Shown here: piece after piece, positions 4,201-46,685 of the stretch
Position numbering within the stretch: position 1 is the first letter of the stretch
How the letters are laid out: each line of letters starts with the position of its first letter
Source of the DNA: Bacteroidales bacterium
Lineage (GTDB): Bacteria; Bacteroidota; Bacteroidia; Bacteroidales; UBA1715
Direction of reading: 5' to 3'
Length of the DNA stretch: 50,909 nucleotides
NCBI GenBank assembly: GCA_016285445.1
Contig: JAEEQV010000001.1
Location: 1 to 50,909, forward strand
The notes under the pieces: model-generated
What the model was told of the DNA's origin: nothing
Seen by the model: only the letters and a program-made list of their open reading frames with translations
The model's database searches: none
Made by a program: the position numbers and the translations under genes

Positions 4201-5712
4201 AGGTTTGTCGGAAATAACAGCAAGAGGCGTGTCGTTACCCATTGAGTTAACAGGTTCCTTGCCTTCCAAAGCCATTGATGTAATAAGAAAATCAATATCT
4301 TCCTTGGTGTAGCCGAATTCCGTAACCATTGCCTTGTAGTTCGGCAGACTGATTTCGGCAGTTCTACCCGAAGAAACCGTAGCCAAGTCGATTCTGTTTT
4401 TGTTCAGCCATTCTCTATAAGGATATGCCTTTGCAAGAGAATCCTTGATTTCGGCATCGTAATGGATTTCGCCTTTTTCCGTATCGATGAGGAACATTTT
4501 TCCAGGACGAAGACGACCTTTTTCGCGAATGTCGGATGCCTTGAATTTCAAAACACCTGTTTCTGACGCCATTACCAACAAGTCATCGTTTGTGATAAGG
4601 TAACGGGCAGGACGAAGACCATTTCTGTCCAACATACCGCCAGCATAGCGACCATCGGTGAACATAAGATCAGCAGGACCGTCCCATGGTTCCATAAACA
4701 TGCTGTGATATTCGTAGAAAGCTTTCAAATCCTCGGAAATCGGGTTCTTTTCGTTCCAACTTTCAGGCACAAGCATCGAAAGTGCGTGTGGCAGCGACAA
4801 TCCTGCCATCATCAAGAATTCGAACACGTTGTCGAGCGAAGCACTATCGCTCATGTCAGGTTGAACGATAGGGAACAAATCTTTCAGATTACCGAGTTTG
4901 TCGGATTTAAGCACGCTTTCGCGGGCAGTCATCCAGATTCTGTTACCTTTTATGGTATTGATTTCACCGTTGTGTCCCAACAAACGGAACGGTTGAGCCA
5001 AGTTCCACGTTGGGAACGTGTTGGTACTGAAACGAGAGTGAACCAACGAAATGGCACTGGTGAAATTCGGGTTAGTCAAATCTTTGTAGTATTCGCGCAA
5101 TTGCGGAGACGTCAACATACCTTTGTAAACAATGGTTTTTGTTGACAAGCTATTGATATAGAAATCGCTTTTGTGTTCCATTGAGGAATTCATCACAGCA
5201 ATTTCCGATTTTTTACGTACGATGTACAATTTGCGCTCCAATTCGTCTTGACTGTCGCAGCCAGTTATGAATAACTGTTTGATTTGCGGTTCCGTAGCAA
5301 GCGAGCCTTTCCCCAAGATGCTGTTGTCAACGGGAACATCGCGAACGGCGATCAGTGACAGAGCTTCCGAAGCAATTTCCTTTTTAATTATTGCAAGACA
5401 TTCTTCCGCTTCGGCATTATTTTTAGGAAGAAATATCAAGCCTGTTCCGTATTTACCTTTTTCAGGAACAGCAATTCCTTGTAAGAGAATAAATTCGTGA
5501 GGAATCTGTACCAAAATACCGGCACCATCGCCAGTTTTTGAGTCAATTCCTTCTGCGCCACGATGGTTCATGTGTTCCAATACTTGCAGACCTTTCTCCA
5601 CAATATCGTGGGATTTTCCGCCGTGGAGCTGGGCAACAATACCAACACCACACGCATCGTGTTCGTTTTCAGGATTGTACAATCCTTGTTGTTTTGGGTA
5701 AGTTGATTTCAT
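1201..5712 (-). CDS. gltB: glutamate synthase large subunit (GltB)
   Basis: 1503-aa ORF. It has the N-terminal amidotransferase motif NEHDACGVG, FMN and Fe-S domain motifs, and a C-terminal GXGXG domain, and it is followed by gltD. Confidence 0.97.
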   Translation of the reverse strand: MKSTYPKQQGLYNPENEHDACGVGIVAQLHGGKSHDIVEKGLQVLEHMNHRGAEGIDSKTGDGAGILVQIPHEFILLQGIAVPEKGKYGTGLIFLPKNNAEAEECLAIIKKEIASEALSLIAVRDVPVDNSILGKGSLATEPQIKQLFITGCDSQDELERKLYIVRKKSEIAVMNSSMEHKSDFYINSLSTKTIVYKGMLTSPQLREYYKDLTNPNFTSAISLVHSRFSTNTFPTWNLAQPFRLLGHNGEINTIKGNRIWMTARESVLKSDKLGNLKDLFPIVQPDMSDSASLDNVFEFLMMAGLSLPHALSMLVPESWNEKNPISEDLKAFYEYHSMFMEPWDGPADLMFTDGRYAGGMLDRNGLRPARYLITNDDLLVMASETGVLKFKASDIREKGRLRPGKMFLIDTEKGEIHYDAEIKDSLAKAYPYREWLNKNRIDLATVSSGRTAEISLPNYKAMVTEFGYTKEDIDFLITSMALEGKEPVNSMGNDTPLAVISDKPQRLFAYFRQLFAQVTNPPIDPIREELVMSMTNYVGSIHTNLLEPAPEICKMVKIKNPILTNIQFDLLLNLNYKGFSTTVLPMLFDPQSGAEGLEKAVDELCKSAEKAVDAGKNYIVLSDRGIDAQHAAIPSLLAVSAVHHYLVEKRKRMQTAIVVETAEPREVMHFALLFGYGANIVNPYMAFAVLQEEIKKGNISLDYESAQNHYIKAVTKGIMKIMSKMGIATIRSYRGAQIFEAIGIGSYVLDKYFKGTNSKIGGIDMSDIYRDIADAHKKAFAPDAEDSWTVVNAGNYAFRKDGELHAWNPETISKLQLATRSGDYAKFKEFTKAVDEKAHPMWLRDFMDYKRNPIDISEVEPASEIVKHFVAGAMSFGAISAEAHEAIAMAMNKLGTKSNTGEGGEDSDRYKPREDGLSTRSAIKQVASGRFGVTTEYLVNADEIQIKVAQGAKPGEGGQLPGFKVDKVIAKTRHSIPGISLISPPPHHDIYSIEDLKQLIYDLRNVNPKAAISVKLVSETGVGTIAAGVAKAKADLILISGAEGGTGASPVSSVKHAGLPGELGLAEAQQTLVMNNLRGLVRLQADGQLKTGRDIIISALLGAEEFGFGTSVLIVLGCVMMRKCHKNTCPMGVATQDPELRKRFLGRHEYVMNFFNFLAEDVREHLAQLGCRTLNEAVGRADLIVPKTFDCNPKISKIDISKLIYMPEEAKTNPLHCVKRGINVIESVIDNQLIAKTKSSIESGAKSELEFPIENTDRTVGAMLSGEIVRKYGEAGLPDDTIKVTFKGSAGQSFGAFLTHGVTFRLEGDTNDYVGKGLSGGKIAVVPAEGTTYAPEKNIIAGNTILYGATSGEVYISGRVGERFCVRNSGAIAVVEGVGDHCCEYMTGGRAVILGSTGRNFAAGMSGGIAYVLNMQGNFDYFCNMEMVELSLLEDSSDVHELQNLIYNHYTYTGSPIAKRILTNWNDYLDKFIKVVPIEYKKVLHDERIAAINKKIAEVERDY

Positions 5713-5733
5713 TTTTATTATGTTTTGTGTTTC

Positions 5734-5764
5734 AAAAAGGACGACTGCCGTCCGACAGCCGTCC
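5734..5764 (-). terminator. intrinsic terminator downstream of glnN
   Basis: On the minus strand, a 9-bp stem (5739-5747 pairing with 5756-5764) is followed by TTTTT (5738-5734). One pair is G-U only when read on the minus strand, and the stem starts 12 nt after the glnN stop. Confidence 0.7.
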
Positions 5765-5775
5765 CGTGCAAAATT

Positions 5776-7971
5776 TTATCGAATAAACAACAATTCTCTG
5801 TATTTAGGCAACGTCCACATTTCGTCGTCAACAATCATTTCAAGCTTGTCGGCGTGGTAACGGATAGTGTCGAAGTACGGCAAAACTGTTTCCTGATATG
5901 CGATAGCCTTTTTCTTTTCGTCTTTGATTTTATTAGCAACCTTACGTGCCTCAACCATTTTCTCTACGGAATCCTTAACTGCGGAAATATGTTCCGAAAG
6001 ATCTTCAATCGTAGAGTTGTCGTGAGCAGCCAATTTCTTTGCCTTTGCAGCGCCATATACTTGTGACATTTTGAATACGTTATCCAAAAGCATTGACTGA
6101 TAGCGAGTTGCAACTGGAATAATATGGTTGAGAACTAAATCGCCAAGTACACGAGCCTCGATTTGGATTTTCTTTGTGTAGATTTCCCATTTAACCTCGT
6201 TACGAGCTTCAAGTTCTTTGGCAGTGAATACGCCGCAGCCCTCGAACATTGCGATAGATTCTTTCTTAGTGTAAGCGTCGTAGATTTTTGGAACGCTTGT
6301 TTCGCAGTCCAAACCACGTTTTTTCGCTTCTTTCTTCCATTCGTCGCTGTAACCGTTACCGTCAAAACGGATTGCCTTACATTCTTTTATGTATGCTTTC
6401 AAAACTGAGAAGATAGCTTCTTCTTTGCCCATGCCTTTTGCAATCTTAGCATCAACGGCAATCTTGAATTCTTTCAACTGAGCAGCTACGGCAGTGTTCA
6501 ATGCAATCATTGCAGAACCGCAGTTTGCCGAAGAACCAACAGCACGGAACTCAAAACGGTTTCCTGTGAATGCGAATGGCGACGTACGGTTACGGTCGGT
6601 ATTGTCGAGCAATACTTCTGGCAATTTTGCGATACCAAGGCTCACTTTACGTTTACCGTCAACTTTAAGAGCTTCACCACCGCTGTTTTTCTCAATTTTA
6701 TCAAGAATTGCCGACAACTGTGAGCCCAAGAAGATTGAGATAATTGCTGGAGGTGCTTCGTTCGCACCAAGACGGTGAGCGTTGGAAGCTGTCATAATAG
6801 AAGCCTTCAACAATGCGTTGTTTTTGTAAACGGCCATCAATGTGTTTACAATAAATGTAACGAACTGAAGGTTTTCCGTTGCAGTCTTGCCAGGAGTGAA
6901 CAAGCCCACGCCTGTGTTAGTTCCGAGTGACCAGTTGTTGTGTTTTCCCGAACCGTTGATTCCTGCAAATGGTTTTTCGTGCAAAAGTACGCGGAATCCG
7001 TGTTTGCGGGCGATACGTTTCATTATCGACATAATCAACAAGTTCTGGTCGCTTGCCAAGTTTGTTTCACCAAAAATTGGAGCCAACTCGAACTGGTTCG
7101 GAGCAACCTCGTTGTGACGAGTTTTGCAAGGAATACCATATTTATATGCCTCGAATTCAATTTCTTTCATAAATGCCTGAACACGTTCAGGAATAGCACC
7201 GAAATAGTGGTCTTCCAACTGCTGGTTTTTAGCCGATTCGTGACCTACCAACGTACGACCAGTCAGCAACAAGTCTGGACGAGTAGCGTACAAACCTTCG
7301 TCAACCAAGAAATATTCCTGTTCCCAACCTAAATATGAATACACTTTCTTCACATTTTTGTCGAAATACTGGCAAACCGAAACAGCTGCCTTGTCAACCG
7401 CATTCAACGCTTTCAAAAGCGGAGCCTTGTAGTCAAGTGATTCTCCCGTGTATGAAATGAATACGGTAGGAATACATAATGTATCATCAACGATGAATGC
7501 TGGTGATGAAGGATCCCATGCAGAGTAACCACGAGCTTCGAATGTGTTACGCAAACCGCCACTTGGGAAACTTGATGCGTCAGGTTCCTGCTGAACAAGC
7601 AATTTTCCAGAGAATTCCTCGATTACGCCTTCACCTGGAGCGCCAGCATATTCAATGAATGAATCGTGTTTTTCGGCAGTTCCGTCGGTCAATGGTTGGA
7701 ACCAGTGCGTGTAGTGAGTTGCGCCCATATCCATAGCCCACTGTTTCATACCGGCAGCAACGTGGTTTGCAATGTCGCGGTCCAACGTCGCACCATTATC
7801 AATTACGTCACGAATGACTTTTACTGTTTCTTTTGACAAGTATTTGGCCATCTGTTCACGACCAAAAACATACTTTCCGAAATACTCCGAAGTCAGACCT
7901 TGAGGAGCTTCCACGGCCATCGCTTTCTTCTTGAAAGCCTCGCCTACCACTTGAAATCTTAAATTTGCCAT
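5776..7971 (-). CDS. glnN: glutamine synthetase type III
   Basis: 731-aa ORF. Its length and sequence (MANLRFQVVGEAFKK..., FELAPIF, GSGKHNNWS) match the Bacteroides-type GS III. Confidence 0.93.
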   Translation of the reverse strand: MANLRFQVVGEAFKKKAMAVEAPQGLTSEYFGKYVFGREQMAKYLSKETVKVIRDVIDNGATLDRDIANHVAAGMKQWAMDMGATHYTHWFQPLTDGTAEKHDSFIEYAGAPGEGVIEEFSGKLLVQQEPDASSFPSGGLRNTFEARGYSAWDPSSPAFIVDDTLCIPTVFISYTGESLDYKAPLLKALNAVDKAAVSVCQYFDKNVKKVYSYLGWEQEYFLVDEGLYATRPDLLLTGRTLVGHESAKNQQLEDHYFGAIPERVQAFMKEIEFEAYKYGIPCKTRHNEVAPNQFELAPIFGETNLASDQNLLIMSIMKRIARKHGFRVLLHEKPFAGINGSGKHNNWSLGTNTGVGLFTPGKTATENLQFVTFIVNTLMAVYKNNALLKASIMTASNAHRLGANEAPPAIISIFLGSQLSAILDKIEKNSGGEALKVDGKRKVSLGIAKLPEVLLDNTDRNRTSPFAFTGNRFEFRAVGSSANCGSAMIALNTAVAAQLKEFKIAVDAKIAKGMGKEEAIFSVLKAYIKECKAIRFDGNGYSDEWKKEAKKRGLDCETSVPKIYDAYTKKESIAMFEGCGVFTAKELEARNEVKWEIYTKKIQIEARVLGDLVLNHIIPVATRYQSMLLDNVFKMSQVYGAAKAKKLAAHDNSTIEDLSEHISAVKDSVEKMVEARKVANKIKDEKKKAIAYQETVLPYFDTIRYHADKLEMIVDDEMWTLPKYRELLFIR

Positions 7972-8233
7972 ATCCTTTGGTTTTTATGATTTACATTATA
8001 ATTAGCATTTATCCGTCTTTCTGTAACCGTTTTAATGCATTTGCTTTAAATTTTCAATGCAAATAAACGAATTATATTTCAAAATGAAAGCAAAACGCAA
8101 GAAAAAATTAAAGTTTTTATACAAATTACGTGGATTTCGTATAAATGCATAATCGAAAAATAGGGAATCGCTTACAAAAATGAAAGTATAGCATGGATTG
8201 GTTTTGCGGCTTTTCCTTGCTCGTTTTTATGCT

Positions 8234-14497: not shown

Positions 14498-14525
14498 GTA
14501 GAGACGATGTGCATATCGTCTCTAC
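14498..14525. repeat. palindromic extragenic repeat, copy 1 (GTAGAGACGAT-GTGCAT-ATCGTCTCTAC), probable terminator of dut
   Basis: 11-bp perfect arms, 24 nt downstream of the dut stop. A near-identical copy lies at 46656-46685. Confidence 0.85.
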
Positions 14526-21481: not shown

Positions 21482-22044
21482 TACTTGCGAATTATAGTGA
21501 TTTGTCCGTTGTTTGATAATTTAATGATTTGCGAAGCCTTTGCCTTTTTCATATCGTTCTGACGATAGTTCACCACATAGTCAACACCATCAATTATTTG
21601 ACTATCAATATCTTGGAAGATTTCAGCCGTTGGATTTCCATGGATATTCGCCGAGGTGGAAACAATAGGTTTTCGGAACTGCTGAATCAGTTGGTCGGTG
21701 AAAGGCTCACTCGTCACACGAATGCCTATGCTGCCGTCCTGCCCCACAAGGTTTTCCGGAAGATTTCGAGCCTTGTCGAAAATAATGGTCATAGGTGAAG
21801 TCGCACAATCAATCAAATCGTATGCAACTTGCGGCATATCAACCACATAGCGCTCAAGCATCGCCACAGAATTCACCAGCACAAGCAACGGGATATTGCC
21901 GTCGCGGTGTTTCAGTTTGAAAACCTTGTCGATTGCTTCGGCGTTGGTGGCATCGCAACCAATTCCCCAAATGGTGTCGGTTGGATACAGAATGGTGCCG
22001 CCGGAACGAAGCACCTCGCAACACTTTTTTATATCTTCTTTCAT
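21481..22044 (-). CDS. tsaC: L-threonylcarbamoyladenylate synthase (YrdC/TsaC)
   Basis: 187 aa with GGTILYPTDTIWGIGCDA and VSTSANIHG. Confidence 0.9.
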   Translation of the reverse strand: MKEDIKKCCEVLRSGGTILYPTDTIWGIGCDATNAEAIDKVFKLKHRDGNIPLLVLVNSVAMLERYVVDMPQVAYDLIDCATSPMTIIFDKARNLPENLVGQDGSIGIRVTSEPFTDQLIQQFRKPIVSTSANIHGNPTAEIFQDIDSQIIDGVDYVVNYRQNDMKKAKASQIIKLSNNGQITIIRK

Positions 22045-23306
22045 TTGTATATCAAAACATTTATTTTTTCTGGTGAAAGCATCATGGCCGCCACTTTTTT
22101 TATCATTTCGTTGGTAACGGCATTTATTTTCCGGGAAACTTCCTCAAACGAATCTATGTGATTGAACCACCAACACGATTTCGCGTTATTCAGCATGAGC
22201 GACATATAATTATCGTCGGAGATGGCAAGTTGTCCCAAAATCTGTTGTTTGTAGGCAGCAAGTTGTTCTTCGGGAAGACCGTTTGCCACAATGTCGGCAA
22301 ACAGGTTTGCAATAATTTCCCGACACTGTGGCACCTTTGCATAGTCCGTTCCGAAATATACGGCAAACACGCCCGTATCGGAATAGGCAGTATAATTCGC
22401 CTCTATATTGTACGTAAGTCCCTGTTCTTCACGGAGTTTCAGATTCAGCAACGCATTGAACGACGGGCCTCCCAAAATATTCGTCAACAACGAAGACGCA
22501 AACTTCAAGTCGCTGGAAATTGCCGGAGCATACGAGCCCAGCACACAATGAGCTTGGTGAGTCTTTTTATTTTTTACGATATTGAAATTCGTTCCACGTG
22601 GAACAAATGGTTTTTCTGCCAGTTTTTCCTGCTGTGTGTCAGTAGTTTGACCGAAGTAAGTTTGAGCAAAACTTTTAATTTTTTCTAAATCTACCCCACC
22701 CACATACGACACGACAAGGCGCTCATTTCTGTATAGTTTCCGATAGGCGGCAAGAACATCGGAGCGTTTCATTTTGCGGACCGACGATTTTGTCCCCAGA
22801 ATGTTCGACGCAAGCGAATGACCAGCAAACAATAGTTCTTCAAAGTCATCGTAGATAATTTCGGCAGGAGAATCCTCATACGATTCTATTTCGTCTATCA
22901 CCACCGTTTTTTCTTTTTTCAGTTCCTCTTCGGGAAATACAGAGTTATGAAAAATCTCGCTCAACACCGAGAACGCCCGTTCCACGTGGTCGTTGGCAAT
23001 GGCGATTTGGAAACACGTTTCCTCCTTGGCGGTGTAGGCGTTCATTTCGCCGCCCACCGATTCCACCATATTCATCAGTTCCGAATAGGAATATTTGTCA
23101 GTTCCCTTGAAAATTGCATGTTCAATCAAGTGCGAAACACCCAGTGTTTCACCGTCGTTGCGGGAGCCAGAGGCCAGGTACAGGCCGACATACGAAGCAG
23201 ATGAATCGGCAGCGGACAAACAGACTTTTGTCCCATTGGCAAGAGTTAGCGTTGTTTCCTTGTTATTCACAATTTTTTTTCGCAAATATACATTTTTTCC
23301 GTTCAT
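22041..23306 (-). CDS. M16 family (pitrilysin-like) zinc peptidase
   Basis: HxxEH motif present (GVSHLIEHAIFKGT). The ORF-track start at 23363 is GTG, so I used the first ATG at 23306 (MNGKNVYL...). The start remains uncertain. Confidence 0.85.
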   Translation of the reverse strand: MNGKNVYLRKKIVNNKETTLTLANGTKVCLSAADSSASYVGLYLASGSRNDGETLGVSHLIEHAIFKGTDKYSYSELMNMVESVGGEMNAYTAKEETCFQIAIANDHVERAFSVLSEIFHNSVFPEEELKKEKTVVIDEIESYEDSPAEIIYDDFEELLFAGHSLASNILGTKSSVRKMKRSDVLAAYRKLYRNERLVVSYVGGVDLEKIKSFAQTYFGQTTDTQQEKLAEKPFVPRGTNFNIVKNKKTHQAHCVLGSYAPAISSDLKFASSLLTNILGGPSFNALLNLKLREEQGLTYNIEANYTAYSDTGVFAVYFGTDYAKVPQCREIIANLFADIVANGLPEEQLAAYKQQILGQLAISDDNYMSLMLNNAKSCWWFNHIDSFEEVSRKINAVTNEMIKKVAAMMLSPEKINVLIYK

Positions 23307-23376
23307 TTCTTTTGGTGGCAAAAGAAACGAACCAAAGAAAAACCACCGACGGACCTGCTCCACTAAAAATCAACTG

Positions 23377-23668
23377 CGTTCCGCTAAAAGAGTTGAAGTG
23401 CCGCACTTTCGTAGTGCAAGCCGTCATGTATTAGGGCACCAACTCTTTTTACGCTGCACTCCATTGATTTTCTTGACGCTCCGCAGCTCAGTCGGAATGT
23501 CGAGTGGTAAAGGGAAACGTGTATTTTGCTATTTTATGTTTTTTACTATACAATGAAGGTTCGACTCCACAGATGAGCGTTAAGAAAAACAGAGAATGGA
23601 GCGTAAAGAACTCTCGGCTTGGCGGCGTGGGTTGTGTGTCAGCGCCATTTCGAGAATTTAGCGGAATG
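23377..23668 (+). mobile_element. candidate MITE-like or structured-RNA element, 292 bp
   Basis: The terminal inverted repeats are CGTTCCGCTAAA (23377-23388) and the reverse complement of TTTAGCGGAATG (23657-23668), matching at 11 of 12 positions. AACTG flanks both ends (23372-23376 and 23669-23673). The interior folds into nested long-range helices, described in the findings. Confidence 0.45.
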
Positions 23669-23710
23669 AACTGTTTTTTAGCGAAGATGTGGCGTCGACG
23701 GCGGTTTTTG

Positions 23711-23740
23711 TTACTTTTTGTCGCTGTAGACAAAAAGTAA
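23711..23740 (+). terminator. perfect 12-bp hairpin, homologous in position to the terminator hairpin after paralog 1
   Basis: TTACTTTTTGTC (23711-23722) pairs with GACAAAAAGTAA (23729-23740) around the loop GCTGTA. Confidence 0.4.
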
Positions 23741-23752
23741 AGAAAACTTTCT

Positions 23753-23760
23753 TATTTTTG
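23753..23760 (+). promoter_or_regulatory. -7 box TATTTTTG for paralog 1
   Basis: TAnnTTTG, 23 nt upstream of the ATG at 23783. It lies inside the duplicated segment. Confidence 0.45.
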
Positions 23761-23782
23761 ATGTTGTTATAATAGTTACAAT

Positions 23783-24298
23783 ATGAAACGTTTCTTTTTT
23801 ACAAGTGTTATTTTAAATCTTTTGACGTCGATTTTACTATCGTTTAATGTACATGCACAGAACGAATTTGTTGACTTGGGTTTAAGCGTTACATGGGCTA
23901 CGTGCAACGTTGGCGCTAATTCTCCAGAGGAAAATGGTGAGTATTATACATTTGATAATGCGTTAACATTAAAGAAAAACGAGGAAAGATTACCGACAAA
24001 AGAGGAATTTCAAGAATTGATTGATAATTGCACGTGGTTATGGACAGAAGAAGGAGTGCATGGATATATGGCGACAAGCAAAAAGAATGGTAACAGCATC
24101 TTTCTCCCTGCTGCTAGCACACGCTACGGGACGAGTGTTGAGCTCGTTGGTTCCCACGGCGGCTATTGGTCGAGTTCAACCGATGATGGGAGCGACTTCG
24201 TTGCCTTTCTGTACTTCTGTATTTTCGACGTGAGCGTAGGCTTCGACGACCGCAGTCTTGGGCGATCAGTCCGTCTTGTGCAGGATGCGAAGAAATAA
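23783..24298 (+). CDS. secreted DUF1566/FISUMP-like protein, paralog 1
   Basis: It has a signal peptide (MKRFFFTSVILNLLTSILLSFNVHAQ) and the motifs WATCNVGA, RLPTKEEFQELI, GYWSSS and GRSVRLV, typical of DUF1566 or the Fibrobacter major paralogous domain. Confidence 0.8.
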   Translation: MKRFFFTSVILNLLTSILLSFNVHAQNEFVDLGLSVTWATCNVGANSPEENGEYYTFDNALTLKKNEERLPTKEEFQELIDNCTWLWTEEGVHGYMATSKKNGNSIFLPAASTRYGTSVELVGSHGGYWSSSTDDGSDFVAFLYFCIFDVSVGFDDRSLGRSVRLVQDAKK

Positions 24299-24320
24299 CT
24301 TTTTCTTTCAAGAGAAAAAG
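24299..24320 (+). terminator. hairpin immediately after the paralog 1 stop
   Basis: CTTTTTCT (24299-24306) pairs with AGAAAAAG (24313-24320). Confidence 0.4.
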
Positions 24321-24336
24321 TAACAAGAAAAAATCT

Positions 24337-24366: not shown

Positions 24367-24888
24367 ATGAAACGTTTCTTTTTTACAAGTGTTATTATAA
24401 GTCTTTTGACGTCGATTTTACTATCGTTTAATGCACATGCACAGAACGAATTTGTTGACTTGGGTTTAAGCGTTACATGGGCTACGTGCAACGTTGGCGC
24501 TAATTCTCCAGAGGGAAACGGTGAGTATTATACATTTGATAATGCGTTAACATTAAAGAAAAACGAGGAAAGATTACCGACAAGAGAGGAATTTCAAGAG
24601 TTGATAGATAATTGTACATGGTTATGGACAGCAGAAGGAGTGCAAGGATATAAGGTTACAAGCAAAAAGAACGGCAACAGCATTTTTCTTCCTGCTGCTG
24701 GCAAGCGCGACGAGGGCATTGACGGGCCAAAGGTGTTTTTTGGTGGTTCCATCGGCTACTACTGGTCGAATTCGGCTTACAATGACGAGAAAGCCTACTT
24801 TTTGTACTTCGGCGAAATTATTGGTATGGATTACTATGACCGCATTGAGGAACGGTCTGTCCGCCTTGTGCAAGATGCAAAGAAATAA
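24367..24888 (+). CDS. secreted DUF1566/FISUMP-like protein, paralog 2
   Basis: 173 aa. The N-terminal roughly 110 aa are nearly identical to paralog 1, and the C-terminal part diverges. Confidence 0.8.
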   Translation: MKRFFFTSVIISLLTSILLSFNAHAQNEFVDLGLSVTWATCNVGANSPEGNGEYYTFDNALTLKKNEERLPTREEFQELIDNCTWLWTAEGVQGYKVTSKKNGNSIFLPAAGKRDEGIDGPKVFFGGSIGYYWSNSAYNDEKAYFLYFGEIIGMDYYDRIEERSVRLVQDAKK

Positions 24889-46655: not shown

Positions 46656-46685
46656 TGTAGAGACGATGTGCACATCGTCTCTACA
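46656..46685. repeat. palindromic extragenic repeat, copy 2 (30-nt perfect palindrome), probable terminator of prmC
   Basis: TGTAGAGACGATGTG|CACATCGTCTCTACA, starting 13 nt after the prmC stop. It differs from the 14498-14525 copy at one loop base. Confidence 0.85.

Follow-up and report, generated by a model that had tools for sequence, protein, structure and literature searches.

An inverted doublet of a structured repeat unit between divergent genes of an uncultured Bacteroidales bacterium: a probable non-autonomous interspersed repeat

Introduction

The 50,909-nt stretch of Bacteroidales DNA analysed here (contig JAEEQV010000001.1 of assembly GCA_016285445.1; "the window" means this whole stretch) carries, between divergent genes for an M16 peptidase and a DUF1566/Lcl_C-like protein, an intergenic element at 23301-23740 that is probably an inverted, tail-to-tail doublet of a non-autonomous structured DNA repeat. 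The repeat is interspersed and multi-copy, and its family would be specific to a clade of uncultured ruminant-gut Bacteroidales. The initial annotation of this region had offered two readings, a MITE (miniature inverted-repeat transposable element) with terminal inverted repeats and a target-site duplication, or one large RNA with long-range helices, and both are mostly explained away by the evidence below. A tidy new repeat family remains, with its strand-specific function in question.

Bacterial genomes are shaped by interspersed structured repeats, which interrupt assemblies, give rise to rearrangements and carry promoters or terminators; repeats of such kind sometimes prove to be guide RNAs or recombination substrates. 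The family described here occurs only in uncultured Bacteroidales of the rumen and hindgut, bacteria in which elements of this kind have hardly been studied. Its covariation is clear and about 45 diverged copies are available, which suffices for a model and for annotation of the metagenome-assembled genomes (MAGs) that carry the family, and such a model could explain contig breaks and the local gain or loss of surface-protein genes.

Architecture and boundaries of the element

The element extends from about 23301 to 23740 and consists of two repeat units placed tail to tail, with an AT-rich spacer of about 64 nt between them. Each unit is about 210 bp long and comprises a short hairpin (H) followed by a core of about 150 nt that folds as a multi-helix hairpin; in BLAST matches and alignments the core runs from GACGG... 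to ...AGTCGG, and the unit ends read CGGAATTATCCACTTTAATC. The left unit (H followed by core A) lies on the plus strand at 23301-23493, and the right unit (core A' and hairpin H') lies on the minus strand at 23561-23740, A' being a diverged and inverted paralogue of A. This kinship of the arms is visible in a global alignment of 23372-23525 with the reverse complement of 23526-23673, which scored 47 (12.3 +/- 4.8 in shuffles), and the homology continues outward into the flanking hairpins at 23301-23332 and 23710-23740. In the window both units thus arranged appear to face outward from the centre, one toward the promoter of the M16 peptidase gene and the other toward that of the DUF1566-like gene.

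In the left unit, hairpin H (23301-23332, plus strand) reads GTTCATTTCTTTT-GGTG-GCAAAAGAAACGAAC and is present in the DNA fold; the GGTGG of its loop (23314-23318) can pair with CCACC at 23343-23347. The core A that follows (23348-23493, plus strand) is a single long irregular hairpin, known from 29 distinct A-type copies. The spacer at 23494-23560, to which no strand is assigned, forms the apparent central loop of the doublet; it is weakly conserved across subfamilies in alignments of doublets. The right core A' (23561-23698, minus strand) is collinear with A, hairpin H included, and keeps the helices of A with different sequences. Hairpin H' (GTTACTTTTTGTC-GCTGTAG-ACAAAAAGTAA; 23710-23740, minus strand) is homologous to H in the alignment of units. 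The element is GC-richer than neighbouring intergenic DNA (0.44-0.47 versus 0.31), as had been noticed initially, and no second copy of it lies elsewhere in the window.

These limits differ from those first proposed. The words taken for transposon ends are indeed present: CGTTCCGCTAAA at 23377-23388 has its complement, at 11 of 12 positions, at 23657-23668, and AACTG occurs at both 23372-23376 and 23669-23673. The 12-mer pair is weak when taken alone (at least two matches arose in 5 of 100 shuffles of the window), and the boundaries drawn from it, 23377-23668, are wrong, as the arms align over their full length and homology and complementarity extend to 23301 and 23740. Both words are internal to the conserved unit. 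In copies at unrelated loci the pentamer belongs to a conserved ATCAACTGCGTT, within the string ...AAAAATCAACTGCGTTCCGCTAAAAGAG..., and therefore AACTG is not a target-site duplication and the 12-mers are not the termini of the element.

Each unit folds by itself

What is conserved is the fold that each unit forms alone, and compensatory changes keep it. RNAalifold, applied first to 16 units and next to a pooled set of 43 (both A and A'), predicts hairpin H, a closing helix P0 and a helix P1 (AAAATCAA/TTGATTTT), to which the smaller set adds P2 and P3; in each run 15 pairs stay paired through two-sided changes. A separate covariation test used the 29 distinct A-type cores and a structure of 41 pairs. 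Here 92.8% of cells were paired, compared with 28-52% when partners were slid, 10 pairs showed changes on both sides (63 cells), and the covariation score was 0.140 against 0.058 +/- 0.006 in shuffles, a value that 0 of 500 shuffles reached. In the left unit the helices of A are P0 (23348-23363/23478-23493), P1 (23366-23374/23463-23471), P2 (23378-79/23458-59 and 23383-84/23453-54), P3 (23387-23395/23440-23448) and P4 (23398-23402/23435-23439). The two unit types differ by compensatory changes in three of them: P3 is AAGAGTTG/CAACTCTT in A and AACTCTCG/CGAGAGTT in A', P1 is AAAATCAAC/GTTGATTTT in A and AAAAACAG/CTGTTTTT or AAATCT/AGATTT in A', and P0 in A' reads GACGCCACA/TGTGGAGTC or GCCGCCGCA/TGCGAAGGC. 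The stem of H likewise covaries across subfamilies (TTTTGG/CAAAAG, TTTCGG/CGAAAG, TTTTTG/AAAAAG), and in an alignment read by eye the pairing of its loop with the downstream segment alternates between GGTGGC/GCCACC and GGCGGC/GCCGCC. Folded alone, A reaches -44.8 kcal/mol (z -2.6) and A' -36.4 kcal/mol (z -3.5).

The long-range helices first proposed for the element fare differently as conserved structure. All of the helices listed at that time are found in the minimum-free-energy fold of 23372-23673, and that fold is more stable than dinucleotide shuffles (-106.7 versus -83.6 +/- 5.5 kcal/mol, a plus-strand z of -4.21; the minus strand gives z -4.85). A single alignment of 16 doublets allowed the five inter-arm helices (23377-88/23657-68, 23450-55/23600-05, 23461-65/23595-99, 23468-81/23575-88 and 23490-96/23560-66) to be set head to head with the intra-unit helices. 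For the inter-arm helices 90.3% of cells were paired against a shuffle mean of 90.1% (171 of 500 shuffles were as high), covariation was 0.112 against 0.098 (15 of 500), and 13 cells had changed on both sides against 8.3. The corresponding figures for the intra-unit helices were 96.7% against 91.6% (0 of 500), 0.164 against 0.075 (0 of 500) and 72 cells against 27. The long-range helices thus show no covariation beyond shuffles, and they are complementary only because the two arms are homologous inverted copies. Two local helices from the initial annotation, 23386-23395/23440-23449 and 23398-23402/23435-23439, do belong to the conserved single-unit fold. The structured-RNA proposal was therefore right that a fold backed by covariation exists and wrong about its span, since the fold belongs to each unit of about 150 nt separately.

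Non-Watson-Crick pairs had been cited in favour of a plus-strand molecule. That argument fails for the left half, as the G at 23475 is a private substitution and the closest copies (loci L012 and L005) have A. Across the family, G-U pairs are scarce: of about 1130 cells in the A alignment, 3 are G-U and 8 are A-C. When the doublets are examined, A read on the top strand has 1 G-U and 9 A-C cells, and A' read on the bottom strand has 28 G-U and 6 A-C cells. The wobble-tolerant strand would be the complement of the H-to-A direction in both unit types, a pattern that is suggestive and involves few independent columns. In the window this complement is the minus strand for the left unit (toward the M16 gene) and the plus strand for the right unit (toward the DUF1566-like gene).

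Covariation of this kind brings in the main rival to an interspersed DNA repeat, which is that the unit is the gene for a structured small RNA of about 200 nt, or a cis-acting leader or 3' untranslated-region element, in a multi-copy paralogous family. We consider this possible but unlikely. The RNA would be transcribed from the complement of H-to-A, that is from the minus strand in the left unit (toward M16) and the plus strand in the right (toward the DUF1566-like gene); H would be its 3' terminator, and the pairing between the H loop and the downstream segment a pseudoknot or an alternative helix. A defined multi-helix fold supported by covariation suits such a gene, as does the covarying GGTGGC/GCCACC pairing, and so does the wobble bias, in which mismatches compatible with wobble lie on the bottom strand of A and A' alike. 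The unpaired segments GCTAAAAA, TTCCGCTAAA and CTTAACGC are highly conserved. In one subfamily, 13 of 35 A-type units have an [AG]AnnTTTG box 18-20 nt before the bottom-strand start of the unit, and in the copies with the box H is followed by a U-rich stretch, AGATTTTTG. However, the window copy and all A' units have no promoter-like box, and H in the window has no U-tract on the bottom strand. Only 3 of the roughly 1130 cells in the A-type alignment are G-U pairs, a scarcity uncommon in functional RNAs and closer to what a DNA-level hairpin would give. Relative to the adjoining genes copies are found in all orientations, a 99%-related strain has half of the element deleted, and the units have no Rfam match.

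That last negative covers the window and 8 loci holding 14 units, in which nothing reached the gathering score, including RNase P, tmRNA, 6S, riboswitches and HEARO; it agrees with the initial annotation, which had matched the element to no RNase P, tmRNA, SRP, 6S or riboswitch. A permissive Rfam scan of 23150-23850 gave chance matches of the microRNA type only. The units contain tRNA-like words (GCTCAGTCGG, GGTTCGACTCC), but ARAGORN finds neither a tRNA nor a tmRNA.

Copies, forms and distribution

The search for further copies that had been proposed for a MITE shows that single genomes carry several copies of the element. A left-arm 20-mer occurs at 12 loci in three ruminant-gut Bacteroidales MAGs of a species-representative genome collection: RGIG7965 from buffalo rumen (5 loci, 6 hits), RGIG6246 from sheep rectum (3) and RGIG9988 from yak reticulum (4). 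This amounts to 3-6 copies per MAG, on different contigs, counting exact words only. An independent 19-mer found 43 loci in rumen-type metagenomes. A profile of the unit gave 88 matches in the window and 62 loci, 59 of them full length, and 45 non-redundant full-length units were left after copies at least 97.5% identical had been dropped. No copy was present in a plasmid collection; in viral contigs two patterns gave chance hits only, and the profile had no match.

The family occurs as singlets, as inverted doublets and as tandem arrays with a further repeat, X. Seventeen tail-to-tail inverted doublets share the architecture seen in the window, with spacers of about 50-65 nt. Single units have no terminal inverted repeats, and inverted arms exist only in the whole doublet. 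All copies are intergenic, and several contigs stop inside units, as expected of repeats. Neighbouring genes, named from N-terminal sequences read by eye, are varied: DUF1566-like secreted proteins are commonest (14 open reading frames at 12 loci), and others include IF-2, SurE, RlmH, restriction/HNH (defence) and toxin-antitoxin genes.

Turnover between relatives

Relatives of the window were found through the M16 protein; its closest named relatives, and the matching MAGs, are uncultured Bacteroidales. In L002, L003, L004 and L007 (M16 61-81% identical) MnmG adjoins M16, with neither the element nor DUF1566-like genes, and in L001 (M16 81%) there is one DUF1566-like gene and a 141-bp gap that has no element. 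L005 (M16 99%) retains only the left 150 nt or so of the element, window positions 23497 to about 23686 being absent. The doublet is present in the window and in L015. In L012 and L005, whose flanks are 95.6-97% identical to the window in one comparison and 97-99% in another, H and A are followed directly by an H'-type module, and the right unit and the spacer are missing at the same locus. Doublet/singlet differences recur at two further orthologous loci (L033 versus L059/L045, and L055 versus L042; flanks 88-94% identical), and L046 has a doublet between convergent genes where L012 has almost no spacer (flanks 75-82% identical). L051 and L013 also differ, by a stretch of about 2.9 kb flanked by two direct copies of A. 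Such absence and partial copies in relatives mark the element, therefore, as a lineage-specific unstable insertion as opposed to a conserved housekeeping RNA, and over short evolutionary times its copies come and go or are exchanged. The empty-site check proposed with the MITE reading has thus found the element absent or different at orthologous sites, but no duplication is seen at its true boundaries.

The comparison with L015 points the same way in a different manner. The doublets of the window and L015 are about 99.6% identical, and the stretch 23300-23719 is 98-100% identical, whereas the M16 genes are about 80% identical overall (58-93% per 60-nt window). Judged from these alignments, the contrast indicates a probable recent transfer or conversion of the whole doublet.

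Could the doublets instead be recombination sites that bound mobile cassettes for DUF1566/Lcl_C-like secreted proteins, in the manner of an integron or shufflon, each doublet being a cassette junction? We regard this as improbable. DUF1566-like genes are the commonest neighbours, and L010, L037, L051 and the window share the layout [A' H' promoter gene H A]. The 2.9 kb or so by which L051 and L013 differ lies between two direct A copies whose outer flanks are identical, and relatives have neither the cassettes nor the element between MnmG and M16. Covariation that is almost purely Watson-Crick would also suit a folded single-strand DNA substrate. On the other hand, many units adjoin housekeeping genes (IF-2, SurE, RlmH) and no cassette, the cassettes have their own promoters (TAnnTTTG boxes), and no integrase lies near any copy among the neighbouring open reading frames of the fetched loci. 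Ordinary homologous recombination between repeats accounts equally well for the way in which L013 and L051 differ. The integron attC core, RYYYAAC/GTTRRRY, is approached by A (AATCAAC/GTTGATT, 6 of 7 positions) and has no counterpart in A' (AAAACAG/CTGTTTT or AAATCT/AGATTT).

Comparison with known repeats and possible modes of spread

Among known systems, the closest likeness is to interspersed palindromic repeats, and the best-supported reading of the unit is a non-autonomous structured interspersed repeat of the kind of the repetitive extragenic palindromes (REPs) with their mosaic elements (BIMEs) and doublets (REPINs), of the enterobacterial repetitive intergenic consensus (ERIC), or of MITEs, its way of moving being inferred. 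With the REP, BIME and REPIN sequences of Proteobacteria it shares an extragenic location, multiple copies and palindromic hairpin units in which compensatory change keeps the hairpin. Both kinds occur as singlets and inverted doublets (in REPINs it is the doublet that replicates, and singlets are what remains of it), form mosaic clusters with other motifs, and lie at the 3' ends of genes and between convergent genes. They differ in that the present unit is about 210 nt long with five helices, as opposed to 20-40 nt (about five times a classical REP), belongs to another phylum, has no sequence similarity to REPs and has so far a modest copy number; and the REP-associated tyrosine transposase (RAYT, a Y1 transposase) was not found in the fetched loci (about 430 kb).

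MITEs have been reported in Porphyromonas gingivalis (PMC2575886, PMC5771137). With these and other MITEs or foldback elements, such as the Correia elements of Neisseria, the family shares short length, lack of coding capacity, multiple copies, inverted arms in the doublet, presence or absence that varies among relatives, and proximity to promoters. It differs in that the proposed terminal inverted repeats and target-site duplication are internal, terminal inverted repeats are absent from single units, the fetched loci yielded no parent insertion sequence (IS), and what is conserved is a covarying internal fold and not transposase-binding ends; no transposase recurs near copies among the neighbouring open reading frames of the fetched loci. 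The MITE proposal therefore survives as far as a multi-copy, possibly mobile non-coding repeat is concerned, but its evidence from terminal repeats and duplication fails and no related transposase was found. ERIC sequences (also called intergenic repeat units, IRU) and pneumococcal BOX elements resemble the unit as imperfect palindromes or modular repeats (boxA-B-C) of 100-200 nt in transcribed intergenic DNA, with a predicted stable RNA or DNA structure and a mode of mobilisation that is not known. They have no sequence relation to the present family, whose modules are H, core and spacer, with repeat X as an extra one in some genomes. Integron attC sites are likewise imperfect palindromes, placed between cassettes, in which structure matters over sequence and one strand may be the folded substrate; the doublet, at about 400 nt, is much larger, comes with no integrase, adjoins cassettes that have promoters, and has many copies unrelated to cassettes. 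Full-text literature searches did not turn up the family, which appears to be undescribed and unusually large and well structured, though its kind is well known.

Units may be spread or rearranged as DNA, either by a trans-acting factor that works on a folded single strand or by recombination between copies. Hairpins co-transcribed with neighbouring genes would serve as terminator, insulator or RNA-stability modules. The hairpin could be maintained by selection on folded-single-strand mobilisation or on an effect on flanking transcripts (termination, insulation or stability).

Several points weigh against an interspersed DNA repeat. Neither the window, where the initial annotation had likewise noted no transposase or integrase, nor about 430 kb of loci yielded a transposase, an integrase or a RAYT-like gene. 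An IS200/IS605 origin found no support: tblastn with the TnpA proteins of IS200 and IS608 gave no hit over the fetched loci. At the true boundaries neither a target-site duplication nor a clean insertion junction could be made out, and the doublet/singlet junctions are complex: L059 has a heptamer array there, and L055/L042 have short similar words. The sole fully empty site has flanks that are only 75-82% identical, and the 99.6% identity with L015 could be explained by homologous recombination of a chromosomal segment and not by transposition. Strong covariation, a wobble bias on one strand and, in one subfamily, a promoter-like box at a fixed distance are also expected of an RNA gene family. 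In a more far-reaching view, which we hold tentatively and think rather unlikely, the unit would be a new class of structured nucleic acid of about 200 nt that acts single-stranded, as the complement of H-to-A, either as a multi-copy regulatory RNA with a Bacteroidetes promoter and H as terminator or pseudoknot, or as a single-stranded DNA recombinase substrate moved along with cassettes for variable DUF1566 surface proteins resembling the targets of diversity-generating retroelements (DGRs).

Gene setting and promoters

The element is set in a housekeeping region, between a minus-strand group of genes (TsaC, a thioesterase and the M16 peptidase, called at 22041-23306) and two tandem plus-strand DUF1566/Lcl_C-like genes (23783-24298 and 24367-24888), beyond which MnmG and YbeY follow on the minus strand. 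The consensus of the Bacteroidetes -7 promoter element is TAnnTTTG. Read against it, a likely -7 box for the M16 gene lies directly outside H at 23283-23290 on the minus strand (TATATTTG), and another for the first DUF1566/Lcl_C-like gene lies directly outside H' at 23753-23760 on the plus strand (TATTTTTG). The module of H' plus box also precedes paralogous genes in L009, L010, L013 and L015, and an H'-like hairpin with a promoter stands alone upstream of other genes at window 24268-24335 and in L013 and L018.

Invertible promoter segments (invertons) are common in Bacteroidales, and an element that contains inverted repeats and separates divergent genes, one of them for a secreted protein family, could be one that switches the M16 or DUF1566-like surface proteins. 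We hold this to be very improbable. Each of the flanking genes has a -7 box of its own outside the element, and no TAnnTTTG box was seen on either strand of the spacer (23494-23560), nor any other promoter motif inside it (the sequence was read by eye; a program scan covered the sigma-70 type only). The arms are diverged structured units of about 200 nt and not short exact repeats, the unit also occurs as singlets and between convergent genes, and a recombinase was not found nearby. The inverton and cassette readings are both weaker than that of an RNA-gene or leader family, which remains the main rival to the interspersed repeat.

The same boxes bear on the annotation of the M16 gene. Its called start (ATG at 23306; GTG at 23363 in the longest open reading frame) lies upstream of the TATATTTG box (window 23263-23306), and the M16 proteins of relatives are called 4-12 residues shorter. 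From the position of the -7 box we infer, therefore, that the coding region starts downstream of the ATG at 23306. The true start is probably a GTG near 23270, with an intergenic gap of about 510 bp rather than 420 bp.

The H' region at 23699-23739 is 90-96% identical over 28-42 nt to two unannotated human-faecal contigs labelled "Bacteriophage sp." (MT836407.1 and MT836148.1), the sole match in the phage collection.

The tandem DUF1566/Lcl_C-like genes are themselves part of a repeat (23750-24049/24334-24633) that is 96% identical over the promoter and the first 270 nt or so; the C-terminal 60 residues or so are strongly diverged, both proteins end in ...RSVRLVQDAKK, and a hairpin follows. 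DUF1566-like paralogues in L010, L015, L019, L037 and L051 have the same conserved start and diverged end. By analogy, this pattern resembles that of the variable C-type-lectin-fold targets of DGRs. A DGR template repeat was not seen in the window. A retron or DGR RNA was rejected as an identity for the element, which is unlike the ends of the DUF1566-like genes; no reverse transcriptase turned up nearby, though none was searched for.

Other repeats and neighbours

A tracrRNA or guide-RNA role was considered at L014, where a repeat unit lies about 300 nt upstream of a Cas9-like open reading frame (5392-7998; MAKVLGLDLGTNSIG...), and was rejected. A separate tracrRNA-like terminator region adjoins cas9, with a probable minus-strand tracrRNA (trans-activating CRISPR RNA) tail at 5200-5340 (AAGGCTATAAGCC...GCCCTGCGTACTCCGTAGGGCTATTTTTTT), and the unit itself lies in a 392-bp tandem duplication; its position near the gene is apparently coincidental.

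Repeat X, which is about 75 nt long with two hairpins (GTTCCGTTAGGAAC...GGTTGGTAGAAAC...GCGTGCCGTAGGTACGC), flanks units at L017 2211-2850, L008 2538-2918 and L014 4718-5259, and in L016 and L049; together with the units it forms tandem arrays with a period of 305-392 bp. A tandem array of heptamers (GCACAAT/GCGCAAT/GCGTAAT) abuts the 3' end of the singlet at L059 (about 2030-2080), and also in L045 and L027, and occupies the position that the second unit has in the related locus L033. Finally, a second, short and REP-like perfect palindrome, GTAGAGACG-N10-CGTCTCTAC, occurs in the window at 14498-14525 and 46657-46684 (chance expectation 0) and six times in the fetched loci, with four copies in L021 and the others in L030 and L049.

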